Made by a program: the position numbers and the translations under genes. The notes under the pieces were generated by a model. The model searched no databases. It was not told the origin of the DNA and was given only the letters and a program-made list of their open reading frames with translations. 64,000 nt of DNA from a virus (taxonomy: Duplodnaviria; Caudoviricetes): IMG/VR virus record IMGVR_UViG_3300028804_000001, positions 64,001-128,000 of that record. The stretch is one strand, 5' to 3'. Positions 1,110-58,329 of the stretch are shown here, piece after piece (the stretch's first letter is position 1; each line of letters begins with the position of its first letter).

Positions 1110-3872
1110 TTACGGGCCCACCCTTTCCAACATACTGAACATACTTGGTTCCACTTTCTGTTCGATGTTTCCTTTCAGGAACTTACGAACAGTATCTTGT
1201 GAAGATTGATGCCTGATCATAGTGAATACTGGACTAATGTGGTCCAGAAAATCCCTTTGATTAGGAAATTCAGATTTATCTTCAAGATAGGTCCAGAACA
1301 GTTCATACAGATCTTTAAACTCTTCAGGGTTAGCTCCACCTGCTTTAATGCAGGCTGTTAACTCTGCATCTACCATTTCTCTAGATGGCAGATGTGTACC
1401 GTTATCATCTGTACGGGCAGCACGAGCAAAATCACACAATTTACGTGCATGACTTCCCCCGCCGTGCTTATTACTCAGAGAGTTTTCAGCTACGAACCTA
1501 TAGAACTGTAGTCCTCTTGAAACGCATTTCTCATTCTTCTCATTCTGATGGAAGATTAACCAACCAATGAATGATAGAGCGAGACTGCCAACAAGAGCGG
1601 TTTCCTTCTTGATATTACCCATAGCCCATCCAGCTTGAAGGCTGTTCTGATCTATGAGTTTAGTTGTCCAGAGTGTGCCACAGAAGTGATCCCAGTTTGA
1701 TTTATTTTCAAATTCCATATTCTTAAATGTGGAACTGATACCAATCATATCGGGGTGAGTAAGAGTATCAAACTCTTTCTCCCATTTCATTCTGGAAGCA
1801 CCTTCTCCTTCTTCCTGACATACTTGATCAACGATCCATTTGATATTCCAGAGTTCATCATTACTAATAACCTCATTCAAATGCATCTTCTGAAGATCTG
1901 AATATGCAGCAGGATCACTCGGAACAATACACAGCAAAGCATCTCCATCAAAGTCTCCTCTCAAGAGTGAGATGAGAACTGGATGGATGCTTACTGTATC
2001 TGTATACTTAGGAACCACTGATACTGCAAACAATTCACATTCATCATGAACTGGATGTCTGCACAGTAGAACCATTGGTTTCTCTCTGAACCATGGATAC
2101 TTTCTACTGAAAGCTCTAAATGCTCTTTCAGGTATACCGACCTGATGGATTTCAAGATCTGCATCTGCTGATGCAACACCATATACATAACTACCAGTAT
2201 ATGGACTGTTGTGTTTACTAACACAATCAGCAATAACTGATGTTAAGCATACGAGATACTTTTTACGTTCTCGATCTATTTTCCATAAGAGAGATGTATC
2301 CTTATTCTTTTCATACTGGGTTGTAAACAGTACAATGTTATTAAGATGTCTAGCCAGCTGATTTAGAACATACAGTCCCCAGTCATTTGCATAAACATCT
2401 GCAAATACAGGAGGCATGATGATGTCCATCTGGTTGCCTTTTCCATCGTATGTCTTTACATACCCATACTTCTTTCCGGAAGCAATATCTGGATCAAGAA
2501 CGGTTCCAACATATTCATCTTTCATATCTTCTGAGATACCAGTATCAAAGAAGGTCCTATAATCAGATCCACCTGGCATATACTTCCAGATTTCCACTAG
2601 CTGTTCATTTTCAAATGAACCAGTCAGCGATTTGATTACAGTATTATAGATCTTTTGAAGTCTCTCATCTTTGATAGGAAGAGATGTTGCCCACTTAAGT
2701 AGATGTTCAGCTCCTCTAATATACATCAGCAAAAGCAGAGTATAGGTTAGCTTAACACCTTCAAGAGACGGGTTAAATTTCTTATCATCGTGAGACTTCG
2801 TTGTCCACTTTAAAGTTTCGGATGGAATCTTATCACATCTATAAATTCTAATTACACCATGTGGTGCATCGAATTCAAGATTGTTCCATTGAACTTTACA
2901 AGTGTGAGAGATGTTATTGGTTTCCATCCAGGATTCAAGTTTGCTTCGGATGCTAGAAACAGAATTACCACTGCATAGTTCAAGCAGCAGCTTTTCATCT
3001 TTAGTTTCATGCCATACGAGGCTTGCCATTTCTTCCAGGAAACTTGCGGGAGTGCACCGTTTTCCAACTTCAAATGGAATCAGAATATCTGCAGAAACCC
3101 CATTAGCGGTAGGCATTTCTTCATCTGGAAGGATCTTACCAATGGTAAACTTATGGCCTGTTTGGTTCATAAGCTTATCGCCAACCATTAGCGGAGCAAT
3201 AGATTTATAAACGATCGTGTACCGTTTAGTGTGATCTCTATTTGTAGGACTCTCTGTTATTGAGACTACTACAGCTCCCCATGGTAGTTTAACCTTGGTT
3301 CGTTTATGCCTTACTGTTTTAATCTCTACACCATCTCTGCCAGCCTTTGTAATTTCAAAGGAGCAGATAAGCTGTCTAGGTCTAACAAAGTGAATTGCAG
3401 ATTCCTTAAACTTGGAGATTGCAGATATTACCTCAGGGAAATAGTGAACTAAATCATATTTCTGCAGCAGCTTATCATGAAACTGCCCCTGACTGTAATA
3501 CATCATACGAAGGTCTTCTTCAGGAGAAGTAGACTCTTCAATTTTCCAGGTTACTTTAGATTCCAGCGGAACTTCAATATCTTGAACTGTAACTTTATAA
3601 GCTTCCAGTTTCTTTGCGGCAGACTGACTTATAATACATGAATCATTTAAGGTTCCTATATCATAGAATCGAACTGCATGTAGATTCACACTATCCAGTT
3701 GAGGATTAACATCAGCTTGATAGTGAATTGGAGTATCCGGATTAAGGAGTGGAAGTGCACTGTGAGTAGATCGTAGAATCACTCTCCGTTTACCATCTAT
3801 GAATTCCGGAAAATATTTTTCCGATTTCGAGATGGAGAATGGATAACTGTTAGCTTCTGCGGTTAATTTCAT
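1110..3872 (-). CDS. two-barrel DNA-dependent RNA polymerase catalytic subunit: C-terminal beta region fused to beta' catalytic region
   Basis: Beta-like motifs ALPLLNPDTP, NDSCIISQS and VGDKLMNQTGHKFTIGKILPDEEMP...DILI are followed in the same ORF by beta'-like VLLCRHP...IHPVLISLLRGDFDGD. Confidence 0.88.
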   Translation of the reverse strand: MKLTAEANSYPFSISKSEKYFPEFIDGKRRVILRSTHSALPLLNPDTPIHYQADVNPQLDSVNLHAVRFYDIGTLNDSCIISQSAAKKLEAYKVTVQDIEVPLESKVTWKIEESTSPEEDLRMMYYSQGQFHDKLLQKYDLVHYFPEVISAISKFKESAIHFVRPRQLICSFEITKAGRDGVEIKTVRHKRTKVKLPWGAVVVSITESPTNRDHTKRYTIVYKSIAPLMVGDKLMNQTGHKFTIGKILPDEEMPTANGVSADILIPFEVGKRCTPASFLEEMASLVWHETKDEKLLLELCSGNSVSSIRSKLESWMETNNISHTCKVQWNNLEFDAPHGVIRIYRCDKIPSETLKWTTKSHDDKKFNPSLEGVKLTYTLLLLMYIRGAEHLLKWATSLPIKDERLQKIYNTVIKSLTGSFENEQLVEIWKYMPGGSDYRTFFDTGISEDMKDEYVGTVLDPDIASGKKYGYVKTYDGKGNQMDIIMPPVFADVYANDWGLYVLNQLARHLNNIVLFTTQYEKNKDTSLLWKIDRERKKYLVCLTSVIADCVSKHNSPYTGSYVYGVASADADLEIHQVGIPERAFRAFSRKYPWFREKPMVLLCRHPVHDECELFAVSVVPKYTDTVSIHPVLISLLRGDFDGDALLCIVPSDPAAYSDLQKMHLNEVISNDELWNIKWIVDQVCQEEGEGASRMKWEKEFDTLTHPDMIGISSTFKNMEFENKSNWDHFCGTLWTTKLIDQNSLQAGWAMGNIKKETALVGSLALSFIGWLIFHQNEKNEKCVSRGLQFYRFVAENSLSNKHGGGSHARKLCDFARAARTDDNGTHLPSREMVDAELTACIKAGGANPEEFKDLYELFWTYLEDKSEFPNQRDFLDHISPVFTMIRHQSSQDTVRKFLKGNIEQKVEPSMFSMLERVGP

Positions 3873-5261: not shown

Positions 5262-5384
5262 TTAAACCTCCGTGACCTGAAAAAGTAGTGGACGTGCGGT
5301 GTTTTTGAGTAATTGTTCGAGTGGCCCTTCAATAGGGTCCTCGAACTGAGGTACGATCTATCATTCAGGATTAGTTTTTTAGTA

Positions 5385-6881: not shown

Positions 6882-7216
6882 TATCTATTAGCTTCTATCA
6901 TTTCTTCAAAGCTATTAAATACTGGAGCATTCATATTAAGCTTATGACGATCGTATAGACCAAGTCTCTCGGCTATACGCATTATCTGTCCAGGCTTATC
7001 TACTTTCTCTAAAAGTATAAGTGCACCGGCACAATGTTGTGTATTCTTTAGATAAACACCTTCTCCATCATCATCGTGCTCTATTGTCTTATGGCATGCA
7101 AATGTTGCCCTATCCAATGATTGTAATATCTCTTCCACACGTTCTTCGTTAAGATAAGCTCTTATATCATTTCTAAACGGACAGTGAGTGCACGGTTCTT
7201 TCATCGTAAATAGCAT
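6878..7216 (-). CDS. Cys-rich protein (DUF6283-like)
   Basis: PCxxCPFR...FACHKT...QHCAGA; start moved to the ATG after the GAGG SD. Confidence 0.6.
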   Translation of the reverse strand: MLFTMKEPCTHCPFRNDIRAYLNEERVEEILQSLDRATFACHKTIEHDDDGEGVYLKNTQHCAGALILLEKVDKPGQIMRIAERLGLYDRHKLNMNAPVFNSFEEMIEANRY

Positions 7217-7228
7217 GATATAATCCTC

Positions 7229-7266
7229 AGAAAAATATCCAGGGGAATTTCTTCCCCCGGACATAT
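7229..7266 (-). terminator. intrinsic terminator
   Basis: ATGTCCGGGGGAA-gaaa-TTCCCCTGGATAT followed by T-run. Confidence 0.7.
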
Positions 7267-7271
7267 GGGAG

Positions 7272-7934
7272 TCACTTACCAGAAGCTGCTGCCTTCTCGG
7301 CTGCTTTCTGATTCTTCTCCACTTTAACGTGGTCAGCAGTGTTGCTGATAATCGTAGGATTACCAATCAGCTGCCGATAGGTTGCCTTGTTTCCGCGGGT
7401 AGTGTAATCTACTCGCAGATAGTCAACCTCTACGCGACTTCCAAGCGGAATGTTCTTGAGCATTTGGTCTCCTTCCGCTTTGAGACGATCCTTGATGGAT
7501 ACTCCCTTGGCACGAGCCAGAGGAACTTGCAAACGATTTGCAAGAGATCCACCAAATTGCCCTTCAGATGCAATCCACAATCCCAGCCCAACCTGATTCA
7601 GGTTCATCCGGCCTTGTTGATCCATCCCTTCATGACGATCGTAACCAATTACGATGCCACGAAGTTTCCCTTGATGAATTACTCCATCAATGGAATTCTT
7701 TGGACCGCGGAAATCGGGAACTTCTGCATATTCATGATAAATCCCTTCGGATTCATCATTGCCAGAAACTCCCATTTTGGTAACGTCTTCGGAGACGAGC
7801 TTTTCGTCTTTTCCGAAGAAATCGAGTTTGGCGAAGCATTCGTTGAACTTTGCTTCTACTCCCGATTTTCTCGGAGATCCCTGAGGACTCGGAGCGTCTA
7901 AGATTGTTGTAGTTGTGGTCATATTCATTCTCAT
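7272..7934 (-). CDS. hypothetical protein
   Basis: 220 aa; contains internal SIKDRL motif. Confidence 0.7.
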   Translation of the reverse strand: MRMNMTTTTTILDAPSPQGSPRKSGVEAKFNECFAKLDFFGKDEKLVSEDVTKMGVSGNDESEGIYHEYAEVPDFRGPKNSIDGVIHQGKLRGIVIGYDRHEGMDQQGRMNLNQVGLGLWIASEGQFGGSLANRLQVPLARAKGVSIKDRLKAEGDQMLKNIPLGSRVEVDYLRVDYTTRGNKATYRQLIGNPTIISNTADHVKVEKNQKAAEKAAASGK

Positions 7935-8028
7935 TCTTATTTAGTGTGGGAATTGGAAAGATCCCTTTTCCCCAATCCCTGAAAAAAAGCGTTCTAGAGT
8001 ATTCTCTAAAACGCTTATATATTTTTCG

Positions 8029-8265
8029 CTAATCTTTTTGATAATGTCGAATATCTGCAGGATCATCTTCTCCAAATGATCCAGTTTCATGATAAGAAGT
8101 TCGGCCAAAGCTTACATTCTTACGCATAACTGTATTACGTGCTAATTGATTCTTACGAATCAGATCAGCGTGATATACTGCAGCAAGGGTATCCTCATTA
8201 TCAGGAAGATTTGATAGCGAGTCAAACAAGCTATCTAGCGCATCTTCATTCGTGTCCTGGATCAT
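8029..8265 (-). CDS. hypothetical protein
   Basis: 78 aa, GGAG SD. Confidence 0.6.
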   Translation of the reverse strand: MIQDTNEDALDSLFDSLSNLPDNEDTLAAVYHADLIRKNQLARNTVMRKNVSFGRTSYHETGSFGEDDPADIRHYQKD

Positions 8266-8305
8266 AGTAGTTTTCTCCTAGTTAGTCTTATAATCCCAAC
8301 AACCC

Positions 8306-8683
8306 CTAGGCAGCTATGAGTTCCACTTCTCCTGGTTCTAGTATTAGAGGCATGCGGTGATGAAACATACTAACCGGCATAATTGACGGTCGTGTTACAA
8401 GCACTACATGACTTGCATTCCTATCAACAAGAGCAGCTACAGTAATAGGTTTACGTTCTCTTAGGAAGAACTTATGTCCACCTTCGTAGAACATATCTAT
8501 CTCTACTGTAGCATCGATCCAATCTTTCCAATAACCGAAAAGATTTTCCTGACGGGCATTATATACTAGATTAGAACCTAGCTTAATGCCCCATTCAGTG
8601 GAAGCAGGACGATTTGCTATTTTTATATCTAAGAAATCTCCTGGTTTAAACAGTTTGTTTCTTGAGCTTACTCGTCCACACAT
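8306..8683 (-). CDS. minimal SRAP (YedK/HMCES) abasic-site processing protein
   Basis: N-terminal MCGR, WG, NARxE, HHRMPLIL; start moved to MCGR after the GGAGG SD. Confidence 0.85.
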   Translation of the reverse strand: MCGRVSSRNKLFKPGDFLDIKIANRPASTEWGIKLGSNLVYNARQENLFGYWKDWIDATVEIDMFYEGGHKFFLRERKPITVAALVDRNASHVVLVTRPSIMPVSMFHHRMPLILEPGEVELIAA

Positions 8684-11155: not shown

Positions 11156-11237
11156 TGTTCCGGGCGAGACTTGAACTCGCACAGCTTGCGCCGAGGGATT
11201 TTAAGTCCCTTGTGTCTACCGATTCCACCACCGGAAC
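11156..11237 (-). tRNA. tRNA-Leu(TAA)
   Basis: Cloverleaf GTTCCGG/CCGGAAC, anticodon arm AGGGA-CTTAAAA-TCCCT, long variable arm. Confidence 0.93.
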
Positions 11238-11243
11238 TTAATG

Positions 11244-11317
11244 TGTCTCGAGAAGGATTCGAACCTTCGACCCTTTGCTTAGAAGGCAAATGCTCTATCC
11301 AACTGAGCTATCGAGAC
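11244..11317 (-). tRNA. tRNA-Arg(TCT)
   Basis: Canonical cloverleaf, TTTGC-CTTCTAA-GCAAA. Confidence 0.95.
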
Positions 11318-13466: not shown

Positions 13467-13540
13467 TGGGCCCACCTGGACTTGAACCAGGGACCAAGAG
13501 ATTATGAGTCTCCTGCTCTAACCAACTGAGCTATAGGCCC
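13467..13540 (-). tRNA. tRNA-Ile2(CAT), lysidine type
   Basis: GGGCCTATAGCTCAGTTGGTTAGAGCAGGAGACTCATAATCTCTTGGTCCCTGGTTCAAGTCCAGGTGGGCCCA; body resembles bacterial ileX. Confidence 0.9.
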
Positions 13541-28408: not shown

Positions 28409-28578
28409 TGAAAAAACTCACGCGGGTTTCCCTTTAACCCTTCGTGTTACATACACTATTGGGTGAGTGGGGGGCCTGCCCCCTGAAAAAGGGGGTCCAC
28501 TCACCTGCACTGCTTGGTAATTATCCCGGCCAGATCATTACTCTCGGCGCAGCAGAGCTGCAGAGAGAGCTAACCCGT

Positions 28579-28634
28579 CACGTTTCGACCTCCATTTCGG
28601 TCCTCGTCAGTATAGGATGGTTCCTATATACGTG
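28579..28634 (-). ncRNA. type III hammerhead ribozyme
   Basis: CACGUA^UAUAGGA-ACCA-UCCUAUA-CUGACGA-G-GACC-GAAAUGGA-GGUC-GAAACGUG; loop I CCA can pair with loop II UGG; cut between 28629 and 28628. Confidence 0.88.
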
Positions 28635-28674
28635 TATAAAGACAGAATAAACTAATCTTTATATTGAGTATAAC

Positions 28675-28755
28675 AAAAAGAAAAGACCCCCATAGTGTGC
28701 CATAAGACAGAATAAAATTTAAATTATACTATCTTACAGCAACACTATAGGAGTC
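28675..28755 (-). terminator. long hairpin terminator after the polymerase gene
   Basis: GACTCCTATAGTGT...ACACTATGGGGGTC followed by TTTTCTTTTT. Confidence 0.65.
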
Positions 28756-28784
28756 ACCCAGATCATCACAGCATAAACTACAAG

Positions 28785-31190
28785 TTATGTCTTGTTGTCC
28801 ATATCTGTGTTGATGGCATAGTCCCCTGCAAGGAGAACTACGCCATCGATTACCTCAAGCAGGAACTCACGGTTGGGAAGTTTTGCTACTTCCTTGGCCA
28901 AAAGTCCATATGCGTGAAGCACGCGGAGGAGTTTACCCTCGTAAGCCATAGGATCCGCGGTCCTCATAGCTTCCTTGATGGCACCAGACAGGGTTGTTAC
29001 ACCCTCAAAGCCAAAGCTTGCAGCAAAGGCTTCTTGAACTGTCCGCATCCATCTTTTAGCACCGGCAAGGTTATTCACCTCAACGGATGCTTTGATAAGC
29101 CGCTCGAGATGGGTTACGGATACCTCACCTGTTGCAACTTCACGTATTCCTTTGGCAGGGAAACAACCAAAGTCTACGTTCCAGTGTGATTGAGCCTGAG
29201 CATTGAATACTCCGAGCTCATTATCGTCCTTAGGCTTCCCTGTTGCCAGCAAAGCCAGGAGATAATCACCATCGGCCTCAAGATTATCAGTTATGGTTTT
29301 CACCATATCCATGATCTTCCGGAGGTTAGGGAGTGCGTAGTTCTTCTTCACTCCTTGTGCAGCTATGTCCAGATAGCCACCCAGAACCTTAAGCGCACCT
29401 GGAATACGCTCAAGTTGCTCTGTCTTCTTCAGAGCGCCTATGGTTTTAGCCAAAGCGTTGAAGATTGGACCGATCATAGACTGAGCGATCCAGGGCTTAA
29501 GAGCCAGCCCTACGATATCTCCCATTGGGAGTATCTCACCTCTTCCGATAAGAGGTTCCTCATTGCCATCAAATGCCGAAACAAGTCCCGGCAAGAGAAG
29601 GCCATGATCATCACCATCACCCTGGATGAATTTTGCATCATCCGGATGCATGACGATCAGCCAATGATCATTAGGTAGTGTTGCAGAAACGCTACCAATG
29701 GTCACCTTGAGGAATGACTGATGCGAAGTAATTGGATACCTCACAAGAGTCATAGGGCAATTCCATTTGCCCATCTTAAGAAGATCATCCATGACCTTCT
29801 GATTCGCTACGGGACGACCAGGCATAACATCCACATCACCAATCTTTTCTGCAAAGATCAGCGAGGGATACATGCTTCCCCGTACACGGATCCGTTTCGC
29901 CTTCTGAACAAGGGTACTCCAGATCTTGGTTCTGTCCGATTTAGCTTCGAGGCTATAGAAGGCTTTGCAAAGTTCGGAGTTCCTTACTTTACCTTCTGTT
30001 TCATCGGACATGGCTGTAATCGTAGCCAACAGATTCTTGAAGGGATCTGCAACCCTGGAGCTTACCTTCGCCGCATTTCTCTCGAACATCCTGGTGATGG
30101 TCTTGAGGCTGCGTTCCTCCCACTTACCAATAAGCAGTGAGAGAATGTGGAGGCTGTAAGCTTCCTTCTCATCTCCTTCTTCTTTAACGGCAGCGAGCTT
30201 GGTGGTGATGATTTCACCAGGCTCAACCGTGGACCACTTCACATTGTCCGGTGTGATCCAACCGTGAACACCTTCTGGCAATTCTCCGAACTCTGAGAGA
30301 AGTCCATCAGAGGTCATTACCCGGCCTTTAATTACGCCGAGCTTACCAGATTTAGTTTTAGTCACACCTCTTACGAGGAATGACCGATCTCTCCATGATT
30401 CTGTTACTGCATTGGTAGCAATAACAAAGTTGCCATCGTGAGATTTGTTCCCTTTCGAAGATACTGGTGCAGGGACAACCAGCAGCTTCACATCAAGGAA
30501 TCTCTCGAGAGGCAGGTTCCAGATGTCCTTTCCTGCTCTCAAGAACACGCCAAGCAGCTCTTCTTTGGTAAAGCCATAGCGTGCAAAGGCTTCCCAAAGT
30601 GTTGGTGTACCCGGCTTACGAACAGTGATTACGAAACCACCGTTATCGTTAGCCCAGGCTGGATGTGCAGGAAGCAATTCCTCAGGATTTCTCCCGAGAG
30701 CCTTAAGCACATTCCGAACCAACTTGTTACGGAAATCTTCAGGCCATAGAACCGGCCACAGCAGTTCTACACCCCACTCTTTCTTACCATTTCTGGTACG
30801 AGTGGATTTCCGGAACACGGTCTTACCTTCTTCAGTGAGAAGGCATTTCTTACGACCATCGACGACCATCCATTCGACGACCGGGCAGCCCAACAACTCT
30901 GCAGCCTCTTCATTGCTGAAGAATCCAGTAGTGGAGATCTTGATGAACTCAGGTCTAAGACCATGAGCCCAGCCAATAGAATCTACTGGTTGCTCTACAG
31001 AGCTATCGAACGGGTGATATTTCTTCGCAATACGAAGATTCTCACCAGCAAAGAAAGCCGTAGCAATTACTTGCACAGCATTCTTATCACTGCCACCGCT
31101 AAGACTCAAACCGAGCACCTTAACGGCTCTTCCAAAAGCGGTTTCACTGAACCCTTCTGGTAGATTGTTTTCTTTGTTCACATCTTTCAT
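28785..31190 (-). CDS. single-subunit two-barrel RNA polymerase (YonO/QDE-1-like) with variant catalytic motif
   Basis: First barrel SHDG..VI...SFLVRG...IKG (cf. RdRP DG.G.I...FQIR..G.KG); second barrel LVRYP...MHPDDAKFIQGDGDDH (cf. LNRQP...HP...NADFDGD). Confidence 0.72.
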   Translation of the reverse strand: MKDVNKENNLPEGFSETAFGRAVKVLGLSLSGGSDKNAVQVIATAFFAGENLRIAKKYHPFDSSVEQPVDSIGWAHGLRPEFIKISTTGFFSNEEAAELLGCPVVEWMVVDGRKKCLLTEEGKTVFRKSTRTRNGKKEWGVELLWPVLWPEDFRNKLVRNVLKALGRNPEELLPAHPAWANDNGGFVITVRKPGTPTLWEAFARYGFTKEELLGVFLRAGKDIWNLPLERFLDVKLLVVPAPVSSKGNKSHDGNFVIATNAVTESWRDRSFLVRGVTKTKSGKLGVIKGRVMTSDGLLSEFGELPEGVHGWITPDNVKWSTVEPGEIITTKLAAVKEEGDEKEAYSLHILSLLIGKWEERSLKTITRMFERNAAKVSSRVADPFKNLLATITAMSDETEGKVRNSELCKAFYSLEAKSDRTKIWSTLVQKAKRIRVRGSMYPSLIFAEKIGDVDVMPGRPVANQKVMDDLLKMGKWNCPMTLVRYPITSHQSFLKVTIGSVSATLPNDHWLIVMHPDDAKFIQGDGDDHGLLLPGLVSAFDGNEEPLIGRGEILPMGDIVGLALKPWIAQSMIGPIFNALAKTIGALKKTEQLERIPGALKVLGGYLDIAAQGVKKNYALPNLRKIMDMVKTITDNLEADGDYLLALLATGKPKDDNELGVFNAQAQSHWNVDFGCFPAKGIREVATGEVSVTHLERLIKASVEVNNLAGAKRWMRTVQEAFAASFGFEGVTTLSGAIKEAMRTADPMAYEGKLLRVLHAYGLLAKEVAKLPNREFLLEVIDGVVLLAGDYAINTDMDNKT

Positions 31191-31241
31191 GTGAATCTCC
31201 CCGATTAGTATTTGGATTTACTCTTTCGAGCATACTAACCG

Positions 31242-31302
31242 TAGCTTTCGCTTACCCATAGAGGTTTCGACTGGTTGCTATCCAGTTCTCATCAGAGCGA
31301 AA
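31242..31302 (-). ncRNA. type I hammerhead ribozyme in the 5' leader of the polymerase gene
   Basis: UUUCGCU-CUGAUGA-GAACUGG-AUAGCAA-CCAGUC-GAAACCU-CUAU-GGGUA^AGCGAAA-GCUA; loop II UAGC pairs with 3' GCUA; cut between 31253 and 31252. Confidence 0.9.
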
Positions 31303-31343
31303 AAGAAAACCCCGCCCAAAGACCGTAATCTTCGAGCGGGGTT
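31300..31343 (-). terminator. intrinsic terminator
   Basis: AACCCCGCTCGAAGA-ttacgg-TCTTTGGGCGGGGTT plus T-run, abutting the hammerhead. Confidence 0.8.
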
Positions 31344-31366
31344 GATTAATCAGAAAAGAGAGAAAC

Positions 31367-32100
31367 TTAGATCAGTTCAAGTTGTCCTTGCCTTCTCTGT
31401 TTCTCTTTGCGGGTTACACCTATTTCAAAGAACCCTCCATTAGATAGATACTCATATAGATGTGTCTCATCTACCTTGACTATCCATCCCTTAATGCCAT
31501 GCTTGTACACATAGCACATACCTGATTCATAGAATCTAACAAGGATCTTCTCCTTATTAGTATTCATAAAATGTTTGGTCATAGTTGTTACCTCTCTTCT
31601 CTTAGATGATGTGAACGTAGGACTTAAGGTCCTCTGCATTCTTATCCCGGAGTGTATTTACAATCCCCTCCAGTACAGTATTCCTATGCTCCTCTACTGC
31701 CTTAGCAATGAGTGACCATACTACTGAGGCATCATCATCTATAATGCCTTGTTCTGCCATACGTATTACCGTATAGTCTGCGTGTGCTTTAGATACTGTG
31801 TTCATATTGTTCTCCCTTGTAGATATTGGTTGGTTATCCAGCTACGCTATCGTGGAAGCTATCTACATGTAGCCAACACCATGCATATACATGATGTATA
31901 TACATGGTGCATGTGAATTAGCATTTAGCGAGTGAGAGACGCATTGCTTGTCTATGCATAGCTGCTTGTCTTTCAAGCTTCTCTGCATCTTGTTGTTCTT
32001 TGCGTTTCATACAAACATGGAATTCAATATCTTTCCATGTTGCATCACTCTTGTTAAGAGCCTTAGCAAACTCTTTCCATGCTTTATCTGCTGTGTTCAT
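31367..32100 (-). other. three small ORFs (31367-31582, 31602-31805, 31918-32100), probable earliest genes
   Basis: Strong SDs; two begin MNT(V/A)xKA. Confidence 0.6.
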
Positions 32101-32325
32101 ATGTTTGTCCTCCCAGACAATTGTGTCATCGAAGTCAGGACCCCGTAGGCTCGGAGCTTTCGAGATTCTGAGATATGACTACTAGGTTGCAGTGTGGAAA
32201 GGTGTAAGGAATTAGAGAGAGGGGAGGTGATAGTGATACTTGGAGATGATTATTAGGTAGTAAGGGGGGAGTTTGTATAGTGATTTGGGGAGGTACGATT
32301 TTTTAAGGCGGTTGATGATTTCAGG

Positions 32326-33096
32326 ATGAGTAATAAGGTTAAACGTATTTATAACTGGTTCCCTTCAAGACCGGATCATAGAGATATGAAATTAAGCTAT
32401 GGCCTGGTGAAACGAAAGCTCTTGCTTCCTAAGAAGGTAGATTTGAGAGGCGGTATGCCTGAAGTATATGATCAAGGAGAATTAGGATCATGTACGGGCC
32501 AGGCTATTGGAGCCGCTTATGAATATTCTCAGATGAAGCAGAGACAGAAGGATTTTACCCCCAGCCGTCTCTTTATATACTACAATGAGAGAAAGCTTGA
32601 AGGTAATGTAATGGTAGATTCCGGAGCGGTAATTAGAACCGGAATGAAAGCAATATCAAGATTCGGCGTATGTACAGAAATTACATGGCCGTACGATATT
32701 AAAAAATTCACCCAGGATCCAGGAAGCAAAGCTTACGCGGAAGCTTCTTACCACCAGGCAATTGAATACAGGAACGTAGATCAGGACCTGGATCAATTAA
32801 GGGCGGCCTTGAATGACGGTTACCCTGTCGTATTCGGATTCACCGTATTCGAAGGTTTCGAATCGGATGAAGTAGCTAAAACCGGCCTGCTTAAGATGCC
32901 CGAAGTATCTGAAAAAAACATGGGCGGTCATGCAGTTCTTATGGTCGGCTATGATGATTCTAAGAAGCATTTCATAGTCCGCAATTCCTGGGGGAAGAAC
33001 TGGGGAGACAAAGGCTACTTCTATATGCCTTATGAGTATGCCATAGACGCCGGCCTGGCTGATGATTTCTGGACGCTCACAAAGGTAGAGCAATAA
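32326..33096 (+). CDS. papain-family (C1A) cysteine protease
   Basis: DQGELGSC, GGHAVLMVGY, RNSWG..WGDKGYF. Confidence 0.95.
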   Translation: MSNKVKRIYNWFPSRPDHRDMKLSYGLVKRKLLLPKKVDLRGGMPEVYDQGELGSCTGQAIGAAYEYSQMKQRQKDFTPSRLFIYYNERKLEGNVMVDSGAVIRTGMKAISRFGVCTEITWPYDIKKFTQDPGSKAYAEASYHQAIEYRNVDQDLDQLRAALNDGYPVVFGFTVFEGFESDEVAKTGLLKMPEVSEKNMGGHAVLMVGYDDSKKHFIVRNSWGKNWGDKGYFYMPYEYAIDAGLADDFWTLTKVEQ

Positions 33097-34237: not shown

Positions 34238-35674
34238 ATGGGAATAACCACAATGCTGGGAAAACTACTTAACCTGCTTCGAATAAGAAAAGACGATAAG
34301 CTTTTTCAGATGGCACATTTTGATCAGGTTACCGGCCTTTCTAATAGGCGAACATTCTTTAATGAGATGGAGAGATTGGTTACCAAATGTGACAGAAACA
34401 AAGGCAACTTCGTTCTTCTATTCTTTGATCTTGATAACTTTAAACCGGTTAATGATACCTACGGGCATGAAGTTGGAGATGTTGTTTTAAAACTCCTGGC
34501 AGGAAAACTTACAAAGGAGATGCGCAAGTCTGATGCCATTTACCGGTTAGCTGGAGATGAGTTTGTTCTTGTATCTGAGAATATACCAAATTCAAAAACT
34601 GCTGCTATAATTGCTGAGAAGCTTATACGTATATGCTCGGAAGATATCCACGTAGATGATAAGATCACCGTCAATGTCTCAGCCTCGGTAGGAGTATGCT
34701 TCTACCCTACTGATGCAGACTCTGTTAAAGATCTACTTCGAAAAGCAGATACTGCTATGTATCTTGCTAAGAAGAAAGGCGGTGGAACTTTCCAGATGTA
34801 TGCTGGGGAAGTTCATGAGAAAGTCATGGAGAAGATGCGGATAGAAACCAGCATCAAACAGGATCTCAAAACTAAGAACCCTGGCTTTCAGGTAATGTAT
34901 CAACCGCAGATAAATATAAAGACCGGCAAGGTGGTTGGGTTTGAAGCACTTCTCAGATGGAATAACCCTTCTATTGGAATGGTTGATACTGGTAAGCTTA
35001 TCTCTATTTGTGAGGAATCTAATCTCATAATCGATGTTGATAGATTTGTTTTAAAACAAGCATGTCAGGATATTAATAAAATTAACGCGGAACTTGGAAC
35101 AAGATTATTCGTTAGTGTAAACTTCTCTCCCAAATATCTTTATTCCAAGGAAGTTGTTAAGGATGTAATGAACATCCTGGAACAAACATATACAATACCT
35201 CAGGTTGTAGAGATTGAAATAACTGAGAGAACTGTTATGGCTGATATGGATATGGCAGCTCTTAATATCATGAATCTGTCCAAAGAGGGAATCAAAGTAG
35301 CCCTGGATGACTTTGGAATAGGTGCATCTTCTCTTAACTACCTTAAGAAATTCAAGGTCAATAAGCTTAAAATAGACCGGGCTTTCATTAGAGATATAAT
35401 GAATAATGAGGATGATAGGAAGATTGTAAATGCTATCCTGGCTATGGCCTACCATTTTGATCTTGAATGCACTGCGGAAGGGGTAGAAACTAAGACTCAG
35501 ATGCAGTTTTTAAAGGCCAATGGGTGCGATCATGTTCAGGGATATTACTATAGCAGAGCTCTTCCAGTGGACGAAATGCTAACTCTTCTTCTGAAATCTA
35601 GAGAAAGAAAGAGATTGAAGCAGGAAGAAATGATCCAGATTTTAACCAAATATCATGATGATATAATAACTTAG
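34238..35674 (+). CDS. GGDEF-EAL c-di-GMP turnover protein
   Basis: DLDNFK.VND..GH..GD, RLAGDEF, YQPQ, FEALLRW, EITE, DDFGIG, KIDR, AEGVE, QGY. Confidence 0.95.
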   Translation: MGITTMLGKLLNLLRIRKDDKLFQMAHFDQVTGLSNRRTFFNEMERLVTKCDRNKGNFVLLFFDLDNFKPVNDTYGHEVGDVVLKLLAGKLTKEMRKSDAIYRLAGDEFVLVSENIPNSKTAAIIAEKLIRICSEDIHVDDKITVNVSASVGVCFYPTDADSVKDLLRKADTAMYLAKKKGGGTFQMYAGEVHEKVMEKMRIETSIKQDLKTKNPGFQVMYQPQINIKTGKVVGFEALLRWNNPSIGMVDTGKLISICEESNLIIDVDRFVLKQACQDINKINAELGTRLFVSVNFSPKYLYSKEVVKDVMNILEQTYTIPQVVEIEITERTVMADMDMAALNIMNLSKEGIKVALDDFGIGASSLNYLKKFKVNKLKIDRAFIRDIMNNEDDRKIVNAILAMAYHFDLECTAEGVETKTQMQFLKANGCDHVQGYYYSRALPVDEMLTLLLKSRERKRLKQEEMIQILTKYHDDIIT

Positions 35675-44816: not shown

Positions 44817-44888
44817 TTAGCCATCAGGGGTTCGAACCCTGGACAAAGCCTTTTAGAGGGGCCTGCTCTACCACTGAGCTAATGGCTA
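44817..44888 (-). tRNA. amber suppressor tRNA (CTA)
   Basis: TAGCCAT TA GCTC AGTGGTA GAGC A GGCCC CTCTAAA AGGCT TTGTC CAGGG TTCGAAC CCCTG ATGGCTA A. Confidence 0.9.
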
Positions 44889-46656: not shown

Positions 46657-47316
46657 TTATCTCTGATTCTGCCACCAGGTCATATCTTTTCCCTTACCTG
46701 CATAGGTTGTGGATAAAGCGTGCCTAACTGTGATATGCTTAACCTCATCTATGTAGGTAAGCTGCCTTACCTTTTTAGATAAAGAAACGCACACCATTTT
46801 ATTATAGCCTAGATCTTCTCCAAAGGTATAAGCTTCTGGCCATCGAATATCCTTAAAGGATTTATGTAGAATATAGGATCCAACCGGGTATGGATTAAAG
46901 CTAGGTGTAATTATGTTAGCTAGTTCTGTAGTAGTCCTTATTGTTCTTCCAACGGCCCACATAAAATTATCAGGAACCATGTGATGCATATCATCTTCGG
47001 ATGGTTGGAAATATCTCTCAGAAGCAAAGAATACTGCAAGGGATCCACTAGTTAAGTTCTCTATCATACGTGAGCAGAAGAAGTTGTGAAGAACAATGTC
47101 ATCATCGTCTATGAAGTAAATATAGTCCCCAGTGGATCTGGCTAGAGCTATGTTTCTCTGAGCACCTGCGGATTTCTTTTCAGATATAACTATAGGGTTC
47201 TTGACTATCTCAATACCAGATGGGACCGCCAGGTTGTTTATGGCAGTCAGGCATCTTTTTAGATAATGTTCTCTTGGGGGTATTGTTGGAATAATGAAAT
47301 CAATCTGAATCTTCAT
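46657..47316 (-). CDS. GT2 glycosyltransferase
   Basis: IIPT, RN, FIDDDD, ED. Confidence 0.85.
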   Translation of the reverse strand: MKIQIDFIIPTIPPREHYLKRCLTAINNLAVPSGIEIVKNPIVISEKKSAGAQRNIALARSTGDYIYFIDDDDIVLHNFFCSRMIENLTSGSLAVFFASERYFQPSEDDMHHMVPDNFMWAVGRTIRTTTELANIITPSFNPYPVGSYILHKSFKDIRWPEAYTFGEDLGYNKMVCVSLSKKVRQLTYIDEVKHITVRHALSTTYAGKGKDMTWWQNQR

Positions 47317-48221
47317 TTAACTGGCAGTATGTTGTTATTAATGAATTCAGTCAACTCCGTTCTCCACCCACGCCGCATACTGTTAAGCCCAGTCTCAGCA
47401 TAGAATCTTTTAGTATCCATTACTGCATCTACTGGTCTCTTTGCTGGCCTGTTGTCACTAATGTAGCTAATAGGATATACCTTAACTGCTTTATCTATCT
47501 TATACTTAATACGCAGTGTTCTAACTATATGTTCTATGAACTCATGAGAAGATGCTTTTCCATCGCAAGATAAGTGATATGTTCCACACATTCTCTGGAA
47601 TACGCCAGCACCTCTGTTCATTATAGCAGCAATGTGTTTTGCTATATATTCGGTAGAAGTTGGGCAAACGAACCTATCTAAAAACCCGATAATCTTAGTA
47701 TCGGTGGTAATAGAACGTAATGTGGATGATAGTGTAGATGATGGGGATTCATCGTATATATCTCCAATCCTTATTACAACATGATCCTTACTTCTTGATA
47801 TTACTCCAGATTCTCCTCTTAATTTAGTCATCCCATAATAAGAAAGAGGCTTGGGAGTATCTCCTTCACTGTATGCTTTTCCAGAACTACCATCGAAAAC
47901 ATGATTGGTAGAAAAATGAAGAAGCTTAGCTTTAGATGTAGAGCATACATTGGCTAGAGTTGCTGGGAACTCAGAGTTGAGTTTTCTACATAAAGATCGA
48001 TCTTCTTCTTCGGCTTTGTCTAAATTGGTATAAGCTATACAGTTGATAACGATATTAACTTCATTAGTTTTAATGACTGATCTAAGTCTTACATCATCAA
48101 AAACATTCAACGATGCATGTGGAGGTGCAAGTAATATACTAGTATTAATGCCAGATAAAGCTCTGTGTATCTTCTGTCCTAATTTACCAGTTGAGCCAAG
48201 TAGTAATATTCTGGGTTTCAT
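47313..48221 (-). CDS. rmlD: dTDP-4-dehydrorhamnose reductase
   Basis: GSTGKLG, AYTNLDKAE, ST..VFDG, YG.TK..GE. Confidence 0.92.
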   Translation of the reverse strand: MKPRILLLGSTGKLGQKIHRALSGINTSILLAPPHASLNVFDDVRLRSVIKTNEVNIVINCIAYTNLDKAEEEDRSLCRKLNSEFPATLANVCSTSKAKLLHFSTNHVFDGSSGKAYSEGDTPKPLSYYGMTKLRGESGVISRSKDHVVIRIGDIYDESPSSTLSSTLRSITTDTKIIGFLDRFVCPTSTEYIAKHIAAIMNRGAGVFQRMCGTYHLSCDGKASSHEFIEHIVRTLRIKYKIDKAVKVYPISYISDNRPAKRPVDAVMDTKRFYAETGLNSMRRGWRTELTEFINNNILPVK

Positions 48222-48775
48222 AAACTTAAAAATGGACTATTCTTATCTTTCTCAGAGAGTATAAAATCATCTAGAGGAAGATTCTTATTCCATTCCAATC
48301 CTTTAATTGCTGGATCCCTATAGTTTATATACTTAGATCCGCTGGGTGAATATGGAGCATCTACAGTATAGGAAATAATAGTATTAGGCTCTAAAGCTAG
48401 AAAACCATGCGCATGATTTTCTGGTATCCATAATGCCTCATCGTGTTCTGCAGAGAGAACACAAGAAAAGGCATGCATGAAGAACTCGCCTTCATCCAGG
48501 CATATGGCAATATCTAGTATTGCGCCATGCAATACCTTAATTAGTTTATTCTGCCTGGGCTCCTGATAGTGGAATCCTCTGAACACATTTTTATGTGAGA
48601 GGCTTACATTCTCTATAAGAGGCCTTGCCATAAAGGTATTAACGGCCAAGGAGAAGTATTCAATAGGGGATAATCCCTGTAAGAAATATCCCCTATCGTC
48701 TCTGTATTTCTTAAGCTGCACCAGAGAAAATCCAGTGGGAGATATTTGATTAGTTCCTGCAACTTGTATACTCAT
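48218..48775 (-). CDS. rmlC: dTDP-4-dehydrorhamnose 3,5-epimerase
   Basis: DDRGYF, RGFHYQ, AHGF, SEKD. Confidence 0.93.
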   Translation of the reverse strand: MSIQVAGTNQISPTGFSLVQLKKYRDDRGYFLQGLSPIEYFSLAVNTFMARPLIENVSLSHKNVFRGFHYQEPRQNKLIKVLHGAILDIAICLDEGEFFMHAFSCVLSAEHDEALWIPENHAHGFLALEPNTIISYTVDAPYSPSGSKYINYRDPAIKGLEWNKNLPLDDFILSEKDKNSPFLSL

Positions 48776-49635
48776 AATGATCGTAAGAAATCAGCGTAGT
48801 TATTTTTTACGTTGCTGTACTGCTTAGTAATATACGCTGACATAGTTTTCTTCGAGACATAATCAAGTCTGATTGCAGCCTCCTCAGGAGATCCTACACA
48901 ATTGGAATCTAATTTGCCCATTGTTATATACTTCTCAACAAGAGCTATATTTTCTACCGTTCCGCAATCCTTCCAGAAGCATTCAGTAGGAAGCTTCTCG
49001 ACGTTACATATTTTCAAACCCAAGTATATATTGATAAGATCTACGATCTCGAGTTCATTTCTTTTAGAAGGTTTTAATCCTTTGGCAAAATGAGAAACGG
49101 TAGATGGGAATCTATAAAGGCCAGTTAATGCCTGATTTGATGGTGGGATTTTGGGCTTCTCTACTAGTTTATTCTTAACAGGATCATAAACTCCAAAGGC
49201 TTGTGGCTTAGGAATATACTTAGTAAAAGCAAATGCATTGAACTTATCTCCCATGAACTTCTTTTGATAATATTCAAAGGGGAAGTTATGAAAGAAGTTA
49301 TCACCAAGAAGTAGTGTAACTGGCTGATCCCCTATAAACGGCCGGCCAAGAATAAACGCTTCTGCTATTCCACGGGGGCTATCCTGGACAGAGTAATATA
49401 TGTTTATTCCCCACTGGTGCCCAGATCCAAGCAGATCTGCCATCCTTCCAGTATCCTGGGGAGTAGAAATGATTAAAATTTCTCGGATCCCAAGCTCCAT
49501 TAAGAAACGAAGTGGATAGTAAATCATCGGCTTCCCATTTATGGGAATAAGCTGCTTAGAAATAGACATTGTTGCTGGGTAAAGTCTGGTCCCAGAACCA
49601 CCAGCTAGTATTATACCACGGTCGGAGATTTCCAC
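48772..49635 (-). CDS. rmlA: glucose-1-phosphate thymidylyltransferase
   Basis: GIILAGGSGTRLYP.T..ISKQL.P...KPMIYYPL. Confidence 0.95.
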   Translation of the reverse strand: MEISDRGIILAGGSGTRLYPATMSISKQLIPINGKPMIYYPLRFLMELGIREILIISTPQDTGRMADLLGSGHQWGINIYYSVQDSPRGIAEAFILGRPFIGDQPVTLLLGDNFFHNFPFEYYQKKFMGDKFNAFAFTKYIPKPQAFGVYDPVKNKLVEKPKIPPSNQALTGLYRFPSTVSHFAKGLKPSKRNELEIVDLINIYLGLKICNVEKLPTECFWKDCGTVENIALVEKYITMGKLDSNCVGSPEEAAIRLDYVSKKTMSAYITKQYSNVKNNYADFLRSL

Positions 49636-50654
49636 GTTCTACCCTCATTCATATACGACTGTTCTAACCATTCTTTATGATCAAGATACCAGCTAACAGT
49701 TTTATAGATGCCTTCTGAGAAACCCACTTGGAATCTCCAATCTACTGCATCTAGGGCCGAACGAGGATCTATGGAGTAAGCCATATCATGCCCAGGTCTA
49801 TCGATTATATAATCTATACCCAGGTTAGGCTTTCCCATTGCTCTTAGAATAATATCAACTACTTGATTATTAGTAATAGCTATGCCAGTTCCTATATTAA
49901 TAACAGTGCCAGGTTGCGCATTCTTTGCTACTTGATATATACATTGAACATTATCTTCAACATATAACCAATCCCTTGAATTCTTTCCATCTCCATAAAT
50001 CTGCGGCTGGATATCGTTCATTGCATATCTAATAGTTCTTGGTATCAGCTTTTCTGGATGTTGCCAAGGACCATAGTTATTGGAAGATCTAGTTACAGCT
50101 ATTGGGTACCTGTAAGTTTTGTAATAAGATCTAGCTATCAAATCTGCGGAAGTCTTACTCGCAGAATAAGGAGAGTTTGGGTAAAGAGCAGAATCTGAAG
50201 TAAATGGTTTATTGTTGTTATACTCTAAAGAGCCATAACTCTCATCAGTTCCTATTTGAATATGAAAGAAGTTCTTCTTATCTGCTTCATCTAGTGTGTT
50301 ATAATATTCTAGACCTGCTGCCATTACATTAGCAGCTCCCATGATATTAGTTTTAAAGAAACCACTCGGATCAACTATTGATCTATCTACGTGAGATTCG
50401 GCCGCACAATTAATTATACAGTTTGGCATATATTTCATTGCCTTTCTCATACTATCTAGATCATTAATATCATAGTTTAAAAATGTATACCGGTTAGGTA
50501 TAACCATGTTGTATTCGAATTCTTCTACTCCGTAGGCATCTGCGTCTTTATCGATATTGATTACATCTATACCATGTTGAATGAATTTTTTAATCAGGCT
50601 TCTACCTATAAATCCATGACCGCCAGTGATAATAACTCTTTCTATTTTTCTCAT
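49611..50654 (-). CDS. rmlB: dTDP-glucose 4,6-dehydratase
   Basis: TGG.GFIG, AAESHVDRSI, TDE.YG, PYSASK, NNYGP.Q.PEK, DRPGHD. Confidence 0.95.
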   Translation of the reverse strand: MRKIERVIITGGHGFIGRSLIKKFIQHGIDVINIDKDADAYGVEEFEYNMVIPNRYTFLNYDINDLDSMRKAMKYMPNCIINCAAESHVDRSIVDPSGFFKTNIMGAANVMAAGLEYYNTLDEADKKNFFHIQIGTDESYGSLEYNNNKPFTSDSALYPNSPYSASKTSADLIARSYYKTYRYPIAVTRSSNNYGPWQHPEKLIPRTIRYAMNDIQPQIYGDGKNSRDWLYVEDNVQCIYQVAKNAQPGTVINIGTGIAITNNQVVDIILRAMGKPNLGIDYIIDRPGHDMAYSIDPRSALDAVDWRFQVGFSEGIYKTVSWYLDHKEWLEQSYMNEGRTWKSPTVV

Positions 50655-51544
50655 CGTGCTCTTACCCTGGTAACCGCGGTTGTGTTTGGATCTATATCAA
50701 AATGAAATGTAGGATGTGGCTTATCATAGAATCTATCCATGAATGGACGCTTACATGCAAAATTCATAATGGTTTCAAATATATTGCCAACATCCATACC
50801 TATTAAATTGGCCTCTCTCTTTACCATCGTAGATAATATCTTAGCTGCTGCACCGCAACTAAAAAGAAATACTGCATCCTTATTTCTATATGAATTCCTA
50901 ACTCTCTTCTTGATTTCATCTAGATTGCTCATAGCAAAGTTAGGAATATCTGGAGTTGGGATAGTGTTAACTATGTTAATTCTTTCTAGCTTTAGATCTG
51001 GATGGAGAGATCTGAAAGCTTTGTTAGTATGGAAGTAGTTCTGGTAATATACCATCTTACCTCCAACTAGAACCACATCTCTATCCCATAGATCCTGGAA
51101 CAATCTACCAGATCCTGCATATTTATAAATGGCGTGAACTTCATATAGGGGCTTATTGCCTAATATATTATTAAGGGCCAACATATCCAGGGTCGGTCCC
51201 CAAAAGTTTGGACTTCTATTTATTCTAGGATCGTGAACACCTAAGAATGTAGCTTCTTCTACCGCAGCCATCAACTCATCAGATCTGGGTATATTATTCT
51301 TATCTATCCCGCACCACCATAGTATATTATCAACGGTAGAATCACCAATTGTCTTATTGCGTATAAGAAATCTGGCCTCAACATCTCCTATTCTGACTAA
51401 AGAAAATGGAACTCTATTCTTTAATTTATCGGATATTAGATCTATACACTTCTCACCACTCTCTATAAATTTAGAGTAGAAATCGGCAACTGAATTCTCA
51501 TTGAACTCACTGGAGAGTGTATTTTTTGAATAGTCGTAATACAT
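50651..51544 (-). CDS. GT-D-fold-like glycosyltransferase
   Basis: SLVRIGD.E ... G..AK...D.G. Confidence 0.6.
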   Translation of the reverse strand: MYYDYSKNTLSSEFNENSVADFYSKFIESGEKCIDLISDKLKNRVPFSLVRIGDVEARFLIRNKTIGDSTVDNILWWCGIDKNNIPRSDELMAAVEEATFLGVHDPRINRSPNFWGPTLDMLALNNILGNKPLYEVHAIYKYAGSGRLFQDLWDRDVVLVGGKMVYYQNYFHTNKAFRSLHPDLKLERINIVNTIPTPDIPNFAMSNLDEIKKRVRNSYRNKDAVFLFSCGAAAKILSTMVKREANLIGMDVGNIFETIMNFACKRPFMDRFYDKPHPTFHFDIDPNTTAVTRVRAR

Positions 51545-52251
51545 TAAAACCCGCGGAGTTTATATTTATCAGTTATAGAACTGTACATCAATCCTTCACT
51601 ATTGAGAAGATCATCTATCTGAGCCGATGTAAAAATACTGTTAACTGTAGAACTCACCTGGTGAAATAGGAAATGAGCATGATCTACTACAGTTCTAAAT
51701 CCTTTCTTTCTAGCCATCTGGTATATAAAGTTATCCCCGTAGAATATTCTTAACTCTGATGGGATCTGCTCGTATTGTTTAACTCTACCAAAGATATACC
51801 ATCCCAACATATGATATTCATTACCAGGTCCTAGGTTGCGAAGATCTGGCTGGCTCTTCTGCTGCTTATGCACCGATAGATATATATCAGAACTGATCTG
51901 TGTTAGCGTTCGAAAGGTTTGGATCCCGATTGTATTATCACTCATTATTCCTTCTGAAGTTTCAATACATGTATCCCATACAAGACAATCATCATTTAAC
52001 AAAAGATAGAACTCTGTTTGTGAAGATACAACTCCTAAGTTCCAGGCTTTGTTAACTCCTATATTAGTTGGGAAATACGAAATCTTTATATTTGGACTAA
52101 GTTCTGAAAAAGGTCTACATCCATTATTAGATGTGTTATCGATAATATGAATATTGCACTTCTGTTTTAAAAGTGTATCTATATTAATCCTAAGAAGCTT
52201 CGGAGCTTTTAGAAGAGTAGGTATAACAACTGTAGTCTTATTATCACTCAT
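51544..52251 (-). CDS. GT2 glycosyltransferase
   Basis: VVIPT, IDN, N.GVN.AWN.G, LLNDD. Confidence 0.85.
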   Translation of the reverse strand: MSDNKTTVVIPTLLKAPKLLRINIDTLLKQKCNIHIIDNTSNNGCRPFSELSPNIKISYFPTNIGVNKAWNLGVVSSQTEFYLLLNDDCLVWDTCIETSEGIMSDNTIGIQTFRTLTQISSDIYLSVHKQQKSQPDLRNLGPGNEYHMLGWYIFGRVKQYEQIPSELRIFYGDNFIYQMARKKGFRTVVDHAHFLFHQVSSTVNSIFTSAQIDDLLNSEGLMYSSITDKYKLRGF

Positions 52252-52997
52252 TATATTCCAATCCACCCTTCTTGGAAAAGACATGATGTATCGATATGGG
52301 ATAATGAAGGTCCAAACCAATTCTTAGGATATACCGTTTTACTTTTTGATAAATAGGCTCCCCACCATGAGAATGATGAATTGGCAATTATAGAACCTTG
52401 TGATTTCTGCAAATGAGCAAAATCTACCGCGGGGTTACTATTAGCAAAAGATACATTTGAACCAAGTTCTTTAAGGTTATCCATACACCATCTATAGTCA
52501 TCAGATATAATCAGAAACTTTTCTAATCCAAAACCTTCCATTATCTTCTTGGCTTCTTTATAATAATCTATGCCAACTACTGGATGGTGGTCTGGTAGCA
52601 TAAGGTAGTCCCCTCTACGCACATGTATGGTTCCAGTTTTATCCATAGAAAATGGAAACTCTATATCAAGAGAGAATAGTTCATGTATGAGATCTTCATA
52701 TCCTTCCCAGTATTTAGGAGATTGGAAATATCCTTTGTAGCTGCAGTTTCTTATTTCTGGTAATGGGTCATATTCCCATCTAGGAGCTTCGTAATTATAA
52801 ACCATTGCTAGTTTAGTTCTAGGTAAAAATCTAATGCCAGCTTTCTCAAATTTATCCTGGAAGACTCTTCTATATTCCCATTCAGAAGGCAATATAACTT
52901 CTTCCTTAATTCTCCTACCATGAGCTACAACTGCAGCTACTTGAAATAGAGAATTGCCTAGCCTTCCATATTCGCCTAAATCAGAAAATGTTATCAT
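52251..52997 (-). CDS. GT11 alpha-1,2-fucosyltransferase-like
   Basis: GRLGN.LFQ, GYFQS, HVRRGDY, ANSSFSWWGA. Confidence 0.92.
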   Translation of the reverse strand: MITFSDLGEYGRLGNSLFQVAAVVAHGRRIKEEVILPSEWEYRRVFQDKFEKAGIRFLPRTKLAMVYNYEAPRWEYDPLPEIRNCSYKGYFQSPKYWEGYEDLIHELFSLDIEFPFSMDKTGTIHVRRGDYLMLPDHHPVVGIDYYKEAKKIMEGFGLEKFLIISDDYRWCMDNLKELGSNVSFANSNPAVDFAHLQKSQGSIIANSSFSWWGAYLSKSKTVYPKNWFGPSLSHIDTSCLFQEGWIGI

Positions 52998-56656: not shown

Positions 56657-56657
56657 A

Positions 56658-57661: not shown

Positions 57662-57663
57662 AA

Positions 57664-58314: not shown

Positions 58315-58329
58315 ATGAAACTCCTGTTT

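Follow-up and report, generated by a model that had tools for sequence, protein, structure and literature searches.

The stretch analysed here (the window) comprises 64,000 nucleotides (nt), bases 64001-128000, of a 225,628-bp virus genome (IMG/VR record IMGVR_UViG_3300028804_000001), and carries on its minus strand a gene for an 801-amino-acid (aa) protein, predicted to be a single-chain RNA polymerase, which is bracketed by two same-sense hammerhead ribozyme motifs. Probably, the hammerheads trim a read-through transcript of the pre-early gene block, and the polymerase mRNA and the RNA that follows it each start with a 5′-OH end behind a terminator-like hairpin. The polymerase mRNA is best explained as a linear, heavily folded, single-gene messenger, and not as a replicon. 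This ribozyme layout has been known since 2011; its pairing with an undescribed family of polymerases having a DxDD loop is new. The elements of the locus are listed below in the order of their transcription.

31300..31343, minus strand: 16-bp terminator-like hairpin and U tract that follow the small gene upstream.
31242..31303, minus strand: type I hammerhead with a GUA triplet; predicted cut 31253/31252, cleavage expected from the consensus.
31191..31252, minus strand: 5′ untranslated region (UTR) of 62 nt after predicted cleavage, with a 5′-OH end and a hairpin at 31241-31202 (z -2.85).
28785..31190, minus strand: 801-aa open reading frame (ORF) of the putative single-chain two-barrel RNA polymerase, from AlphaFold2 and structure matches.
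29607..29618, minus strand: predicted catalytic loop D525-G-D527-D528, DxDD in place of DxDGD.
28675..28755, minus strand: long terminator-like hairpin of ~30 bp with a U tract (z -7.7).
28635..28663, minus strand: short hairpin, the expected 3′ terminus of the RNA after both cuts.
28578..28634, minus strand: type III hammerhead with a GUA triplet; predicted cut 28629/28628.
28483..28490, minus strand: first of 16 same-strand TTTTTCAG motifs, candidate promoter of the 801-aa polymerase.

In both motifs the core (CUGANGA, GAAA and the NUH triplet) is complete, the three stems are in register, and a 4-bp tertiary pairing between stem I and stem II appears possible. The type I motif has a stem I of 8 bp (31303-31296 with 31252-31245), CUGAUGA at 31295-31289, a stem II of 2 bp, a bulged A and 4 bp, GAAA at 31268-31265, a stem III of 4 bp and GUA at 31255-31253; UAGC in its loop II (31280-31277) could pair with GCUA (31245-31242) in a 4-bp tail pseudoknot, and its fold lies about 2 kcal/mol above a competing one, pseudoknots being ignored. 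The type III motif has a stem III of 5 bp, GUA at 28631-28629, a stem I of 7 bp, CUGACGA at 28610-28604, a stem II of 2 bp, a bulged A and 2 bp, and GAAA at 28586-28583; CCAU of loop I (28620-28617) could pair with AUGG of loop II (28595-28592), and the minimum-energy fold retains all three stems. The predicted cuts are located 62 nt 5′ of the ATG and 156 nt 3′ of the stop codon, and cleavage at both sites would free an RNA of 2,624 nt. The initial annotation of this DNA, made from the letters alone, had placed the cuts about 60 nt before the start and 155 nt after the stop and had derived a product of the same size (31252 to 28629); its account of the cores, GUA triplets and tertiary pairings, which are likewise read from the sequence, also holds.

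A descriptor scan of the whole genome for type I and type III hammerheads returned just these two matches, and dinucleotide-shuffled genomes gave 0.03 matches per genome with the same descriptor, which bears out the earlier claim of a same-sense pair around the polymerase gene. A looser scan that included type II (null of 0.03 per genome at a score >=15, and 0 in 100 at >=16) gave one extra, sprawling match at 73647; having long loops and lying within an ORF, it was set aside as a probable chance match. Across the strain loci examined, the paired and core positions of both ribozymes are invariant, with one loop change, in strain L016; from about 140 nt further downstream the DNA varies freely and is rearranged. 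The exact ribozyme patterns were not found in the viral contig collection (viral_contigs). Two same-sense motifs around one gene in a phage genome make this a case of gene-flanking phage hammerheads; the pair appears to be real and non-random, and its cleavage is predicted.

Each of the two ribozymes is preceded by a hairpin and a U tract. The ~30-bp hairpin and its U tract end 46 nt before the 3′ cut, and in strain L016 a U-A pair of the hairpin has become A-U, a compensatory change; on the 5′ side, a GGGAG ribosome-binding site (31201-31197) stands unpaired after the hairpin of the 5′ UTR. A module of the same kind is found in L027, a related locus (31% identity), where hairpin, U tract and type III hammerhead lie 78 nt ahead of the polymerase gene; this recurrence fits the more conservative of two earlier proposals, that each hammerhead follows a terminator and gives read-through RNA a 5′-OH end. 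In L027, type II and type III hammerheads enclose a 130-aa neighbour gene, and the polymerase gene has none behind it; the type II motif (5375-5440, before the 130-aa gene) has a 6-bp pseudoknot between loop I and the 3′ tail, and is missed by Rfam. Among 10 related lineages with the full gene (upstream DNA being missing in L029 and short in L045), 1/10 has an upstream hammerhead and 0/10 a downstream one; the comparison of synteny that had been proposed yielded the upstream module of L027 and no downstream counterpart. In L034 and L036, which are devoid of hammerheads, the pre-early spacers consist of a hairpin and U tract followed by a hairpin and ribosome-binding site; since the hairpin layout is shared by these loci, the ribozymes would be an add-on to a punctuation common to the family.

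Gene-flanking prophage hammerheads were described by Perreault in 2011: they cleave in vitro and in E. coli, the flanked genes vary, and circles were sought from such phage arrangements with none detected (PMC3088659). The present motifs resemble them in being same-sense, of mixed types and on both sides of one gene, as well as in the pseudoknot-type tertiary pairings, the short stem II and the variable identity of the flanked gene. They differ in that the flanked gene is the 2.4-kb RNA polymerase gene of a large contractile-tailed phage, each ribozyme comes after a terminator-like hairpin, stem II is bulged, and both escape Rfam. In the present locus the layout surrounds a gene that is easy to read out, and two ribozymes, a terminator, the DxDD polymerase family and a candidate promoter make the locus a compact test system.

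For the 801-aa protein nothing was obtained from Pfam, PHROGs, a PDB sequence search or ESM Atlas features, and no relative was found in the IMG/VR scans, GTDB genomes or INPHARED phages; a full HMMER search identified 41 distant homologs with 27-39% identity. Using the homolog alignment, AlphaFold2 produced a model with a predicted local distance difference test (pLDDT) score of 88, compared with 36 from the single sequence. The model matched QDE-1 (Z 20.0, 493 aligned, root-mean-square deviation (rmsd) 5.4, 10% identity), P74-26 gp62 (Z 18.1, 430 aligned, rmsd 5.0, 12% identity) and RDR2 (Z 17.2), all with Z scores well above unrelated rows, and Foldseek ranked P23-45 gp64 first. At the level of the modelled fold, two double-psi barrels in one chain, as in QDE-1 and gp64, are thus confirmed.

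The three Asp residues of the loop are invariant in 39/39 aligned sequences, position 529 is His or variable, and the canonical DxDxD metal-binding loop is not found in the family; in a low-probability alignment, the loop falls on the DFDGD loop of the second polymerase described below. Conservation extends to D252 (35/36), K288 (36/36), K318 (35/35), R484 (38/39) and P486 (39/39). When compared with the residues common to two-barrel polymerases (PMC2919709), all eight catalytic-site equivalents are kept in the family, the equivalence of the MgB Asp, the two Lys and Arg-x-Pro being set by motif order and not by residue-level superposition. Catalysis by the DxDD loop would be consistent with this conservation; proof of activity would widen the “universal” two-barrel active site and provide a new one-chain polymerase/promoter pair. 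Like QDE-1 and RDR2 (PDB 7Y7P, 2J7N, 7W84; PF05183), the protein has equivalents of the DG, KG, RxP and catalytic Asp motifs; unlike them, it has a DxDD loop and a phage context, and the PF05183 profile, which does match in B. subtilis, gives no match to it. Of the earlier designation as an RdRP/YonO-like polymerase, the two-barrel fold stands, the expected DxDGD loop and PF05183 match do not, and “RdRP” describes a resemblance of fold only.

Some members of the family are much longer (P0019-P0024 and P0047, 1157-1750 aa; also L032), and members of the alignment match RNase H, helicase/AAA, NADAR, DUF1848 and DUF4326 models, which suggests fused accessory domains. Codons 43-61 of the polymerase gene (31062-31008) contain a dense set of linked substitutions, many of them non-synonymous, that divides the strains into two alleles; this block looks like recombination.

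Genomic context points to the 801-aa protein being a DNA-dependent early transcription enzyme. TTTTTCAG has 16 of its 23 genomic copies on the coding strand, from 28490 down to 5284; its clustering in the 23 kb downstream has a binomial P of 5e-16, for an interval picked after viewing the data. Many copies stand directly before a ribosome-binding site, and none is in the pre-early block or the polymerase gene. TTTTCAG occurs 12 times in the 6 kb downstream of the L027 gene (8687-13631) and 0 times in the 6 kb upstream, and 5 times downstream (4126-8443) and 0 upstream in L028. TTTTTCAG is therefore treated as a candidate 8-bp promoter, which appears conserved with the enzyme across phages at ~30% protein identity, and its layout fits a cascade in which the 801-aa enzyme would transcribe the early genes; CTGTCTT and GTAAGTCC were also considered as promoters and discarded. 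Behind the last copy of TTTTTCAG, an operon holds a further gene:

1110..3872, minus strand: second RNA polymerase-like gene, 920 aa, whose single chain combines PF00562 (beta domain 6) with DFDGD; the protein has no relative in the INPHARED or IMG/VR scans.

A close parallel is P23-45 gp64, which is encoded in a pre-early block, transcribes early genes from a short motif and is DNA-dependent (PMC10770324). With gp64 and P74-26 gp62 (PDB 8F72, 8F5M) the protein shares the single-chain two-barrel fold and the location in a small pre-early block, and with gp64 the short motif marking downstream early genes; it differs in having DxDD versus DxDxD and 801 versus ~593 ordered residues, in the second beta/beta′-like polymerase gene of its genome, and in the ribozymes, none of which are reported for the Thermus phages. 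YonO of SPbeta, strictly DNA-dependent (PMC5467207), is also a phage-encoded single-chain two-barrel polymerase of similar size; it differs from the 801-aa protein in transcribing late genes and in having the canonical Asp triad intact.

In the favoured trimming model, the pre-early block would be transcribed as RNA reading over the terminator-like hairpins; the type I cut, as expected from the consensus, would leave a 5′-OH end and a hairpin, with the ribosome-binding site free. A 5′-OH end together with a hairpin resists 5′-monophosphate-dependent decay. Most of the polymerase mRNA would end at the hairpin and U tract near 28675, and the type III ribozyme would cut the read-through RNA, so that the downstream non-coding/SSB RNA gains a 5′-OH end of its own. 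The polymerase would then transcribe the TTTTTCAG-marked genes and finally the operon of the second polymerase.

Several points weigh against this model. Cleavage, termination efficiency and transcript ends are predictions, and the stability benefit of cleavage is inferred only. The Rfam hammerhead covariance models, a check proposed with the initial annotation, miss both motifs at the gathering score and even at E 10, and Rfam scans of the window and the relatives gave no hammerhead or other ribozyme class; these negatives are weak evidence because clear hammerheads, including those of L027, are missed too, and the bulged stem II may explain the misses. For polymerases with the DxDD loop, the literature searched yielded neither a description nor an activity test. 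Near 7 other homologs TTTTCAG is scarce or lacking, and it could instead be a processing or termination signal.

It is conceivable, if unlikely, that the ribozymes are mainly insulators or regulators, which uncouple or discard read-through RNA and tune the polymerase dose. The last four U's of the upstream U tract (31303-31300) are also the 5′ strand of the type I stem I, therefore termination and cleavage would be alternative outcomes; a competing type I fold lies within 2 kcal/mol, and the type III core remains on the downstream RNA, and may therefore serve that RNA and not the polymerase mRNA. No ligand-sensing element was seen, however, and the anatomy overlaps that of the trimming model. 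There is only a slight chance that either motif, or the pair, has become an inactive relic, or that the DxDD protein is catalytically dead. The failure of Rfam, the absence of hammerheads in 9/10 related loci and the bulged stem II would agree with decay; the type III motif might be read in a register with a G inserted after A9, an insertion reported to be harmful in the hammerhead of chrysanthemum chlorotic mottle viroid (CChMVd). But stem II also permits a canonical reading, all core positions are intact, the tertiary pairings are present, GUA is a naturally active triplet (PMC1636495), the motifs are invariant across strains, and the eight catalytic-site equivalents are all kept by the protein family.

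The initial annotation had also raised a bolder proposal, an excised and circularized, possibly self-templating polymerase mRNA, which is poorly supported. In its plainest form, a double cut followed by ligation by host RtcB would give a stable circular mRNA that prolongs expression without replication; we regard this as quite unlikely. A type I motif upstream and a type III motif downstream would leave 5′-OH and 2′,3′-cyclic phosphate ends with minimal scars, the circle would contain no core and could not be re-cut, RtcB is common in bacteria (10/14 control genomes), and the 2,624-nt RNA is strongly folded (-1054 kcal/mol versus -860 to -883 for codon-shuffled versions). On the other hand, the z -7.7 terminator-like hairpin stands 46 nt ahead of the 3′ cut, the duplex between the ends amounts to just -2.4 to -6.1 kcal/mol, each end folds on itself and no ligation stem is present; the phage genome yielded neither an RtcB nor a PF09414 ligase (in the PF09511 ligase search the control gave no match anywhere), 0/10 related loci have a downstream hammerhead, and circles were not found where sought in similar arrangements (PMC3088659). 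That the phage excises its polymerase mRNA almost without scars, and that host RtcB ligates it into a long-lived coding circle, possibly copied by the encoded QDE-1-like enzyme, is very unlikely; such a circle, if found, would to our knowledge be the first for a DNA phage.

The chance is minimal that the gene encodes a genuine RNA-dependent RNA polymerase, which amplifies its own excised RNA as a replicon nested in a DNA phage. In favour of this reading, the top structural match, QDE-1, was solved on RNA and DNA templates, and 9/10 homologous genes show a folding excess of 14-57%. Each ribozyme core, however, lies outside the released RNA, that of type I on the 5′ side of its cut and that of type III on the 3′ side, which leaves the product without a ribozyme; therefore, replication multimers could not be processed, and a stable circle would still be possible. 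On the plus strand of the locus, descriptor scans gave no hammerhead and the Rfam scan, of limited sensitivity here, no other ribozyme class. Natural circular replicons retain a full ribozyme in the monomer, in both polarities in the Avsunviroidae, and Tornado circles have a ligation stem. The locus resembles Avsunviroidae viroids, retrozymes and engineered Tornado circles in that hammerhead cuts leave ligatable ends, and differs from them in having no ribozyme in the monomer, none on the opposite strand and no ligation stem. In addition, P74-26 gp62 scores nearly as high as QDE-1 and its close homolog gp64 is DNA-dependent, TTTTCAG tracks the polymerase gene, and the loci with enough context are all gene-dense, phage-like DNA, in some of which, such as L046, the following gene runs over the stop of the polymerase gene.

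The folding excess of the polymerase gene (23% in 240-nt windows) is the third among 89 genes, the gene median being 10.6%, and the excess spans 9-57% in homologs; the helices of the released RNA are mostly local. As support for an RNA replicon it was rejected, given that the folded zone already begins where the pre-early block starts, before the 5′ ribozyme is reached, and that other genes and hammerhead-free relatives show it too; the same holds for its bearing on a circle. We attribute the strong folding to the pre-early block in its entirety, and it may point to a general strategy of RNA protection in early infection. Likewise, G-U strand asymmetry was rejected as a sign of selection at the RNA level, because codon-shuffled controls show the same. 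Among the strain single-nucleotide polymorphisms, 0/21 synonymous transitions break a confident pair, whereas 21% of the possible ones would, a result that is only suggestive because the fold was predicted from a single allele. Very high local folding, up to 57% over codon-shuffled controls, is seen at 28600-32100 and in L026, L032, L034, L045 and L046.

The pre-early block is a short minus-strand block that begins at a divergence point near 32100; the 801-aa ORF, following three small genes, is its last and largest gene. One further element stands at its head:

32148..32155, minus strand: TCCGAGCC leader motif, candidate promoter or antitermination element.

TCCGAGCC has a single copy in the genome (32155-32148); it recurs in L027 (4435) and L036 (2626), where it precedes the block's first gene, and in L028 (319), 1 kb upstream of the polymerase.

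Beyond the type III ribozyme, about 700 nt of non-coding, hairpin-rich DNA (28480-27780, minus strand) lies ahead of the SSB gene; its modules are swapped or lost among strains, and the distance to SSB ranges from 405 to 1014 nt. Immediately after the polymerase stop, L027 (8485-8600) and L028 (3875-4035) share a structured element, without a match in Rfam, in which a CUUCU-loop hairpin inside a larger stem is followed by CTCTCTC and TGGCTGGATA; a looser echo of it is present at window positions 28569-28522.

The first 100 bases of the 225,628-bp genome are repeated at its end. The genome encodes a major head protein, portal, tail sheath, DNA polymerase and primase/helicase; on the basis of the capsid, portal, sheath and DNA polymerase genes, it belongs to a large contractile-tailed phage. 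Elsewhere, the window contains a GGDEF-EAL protein (34238-35674, plus strand), a papain-family peptidase (32326-33096, plus strand) and a long series of genes apparently for sugar modification (46657-62000, minus strand), together with four tRNA genes at 11156-11317, 13467-13540 and 44817-44888, the last of which has a CUA (amber) anticodon.

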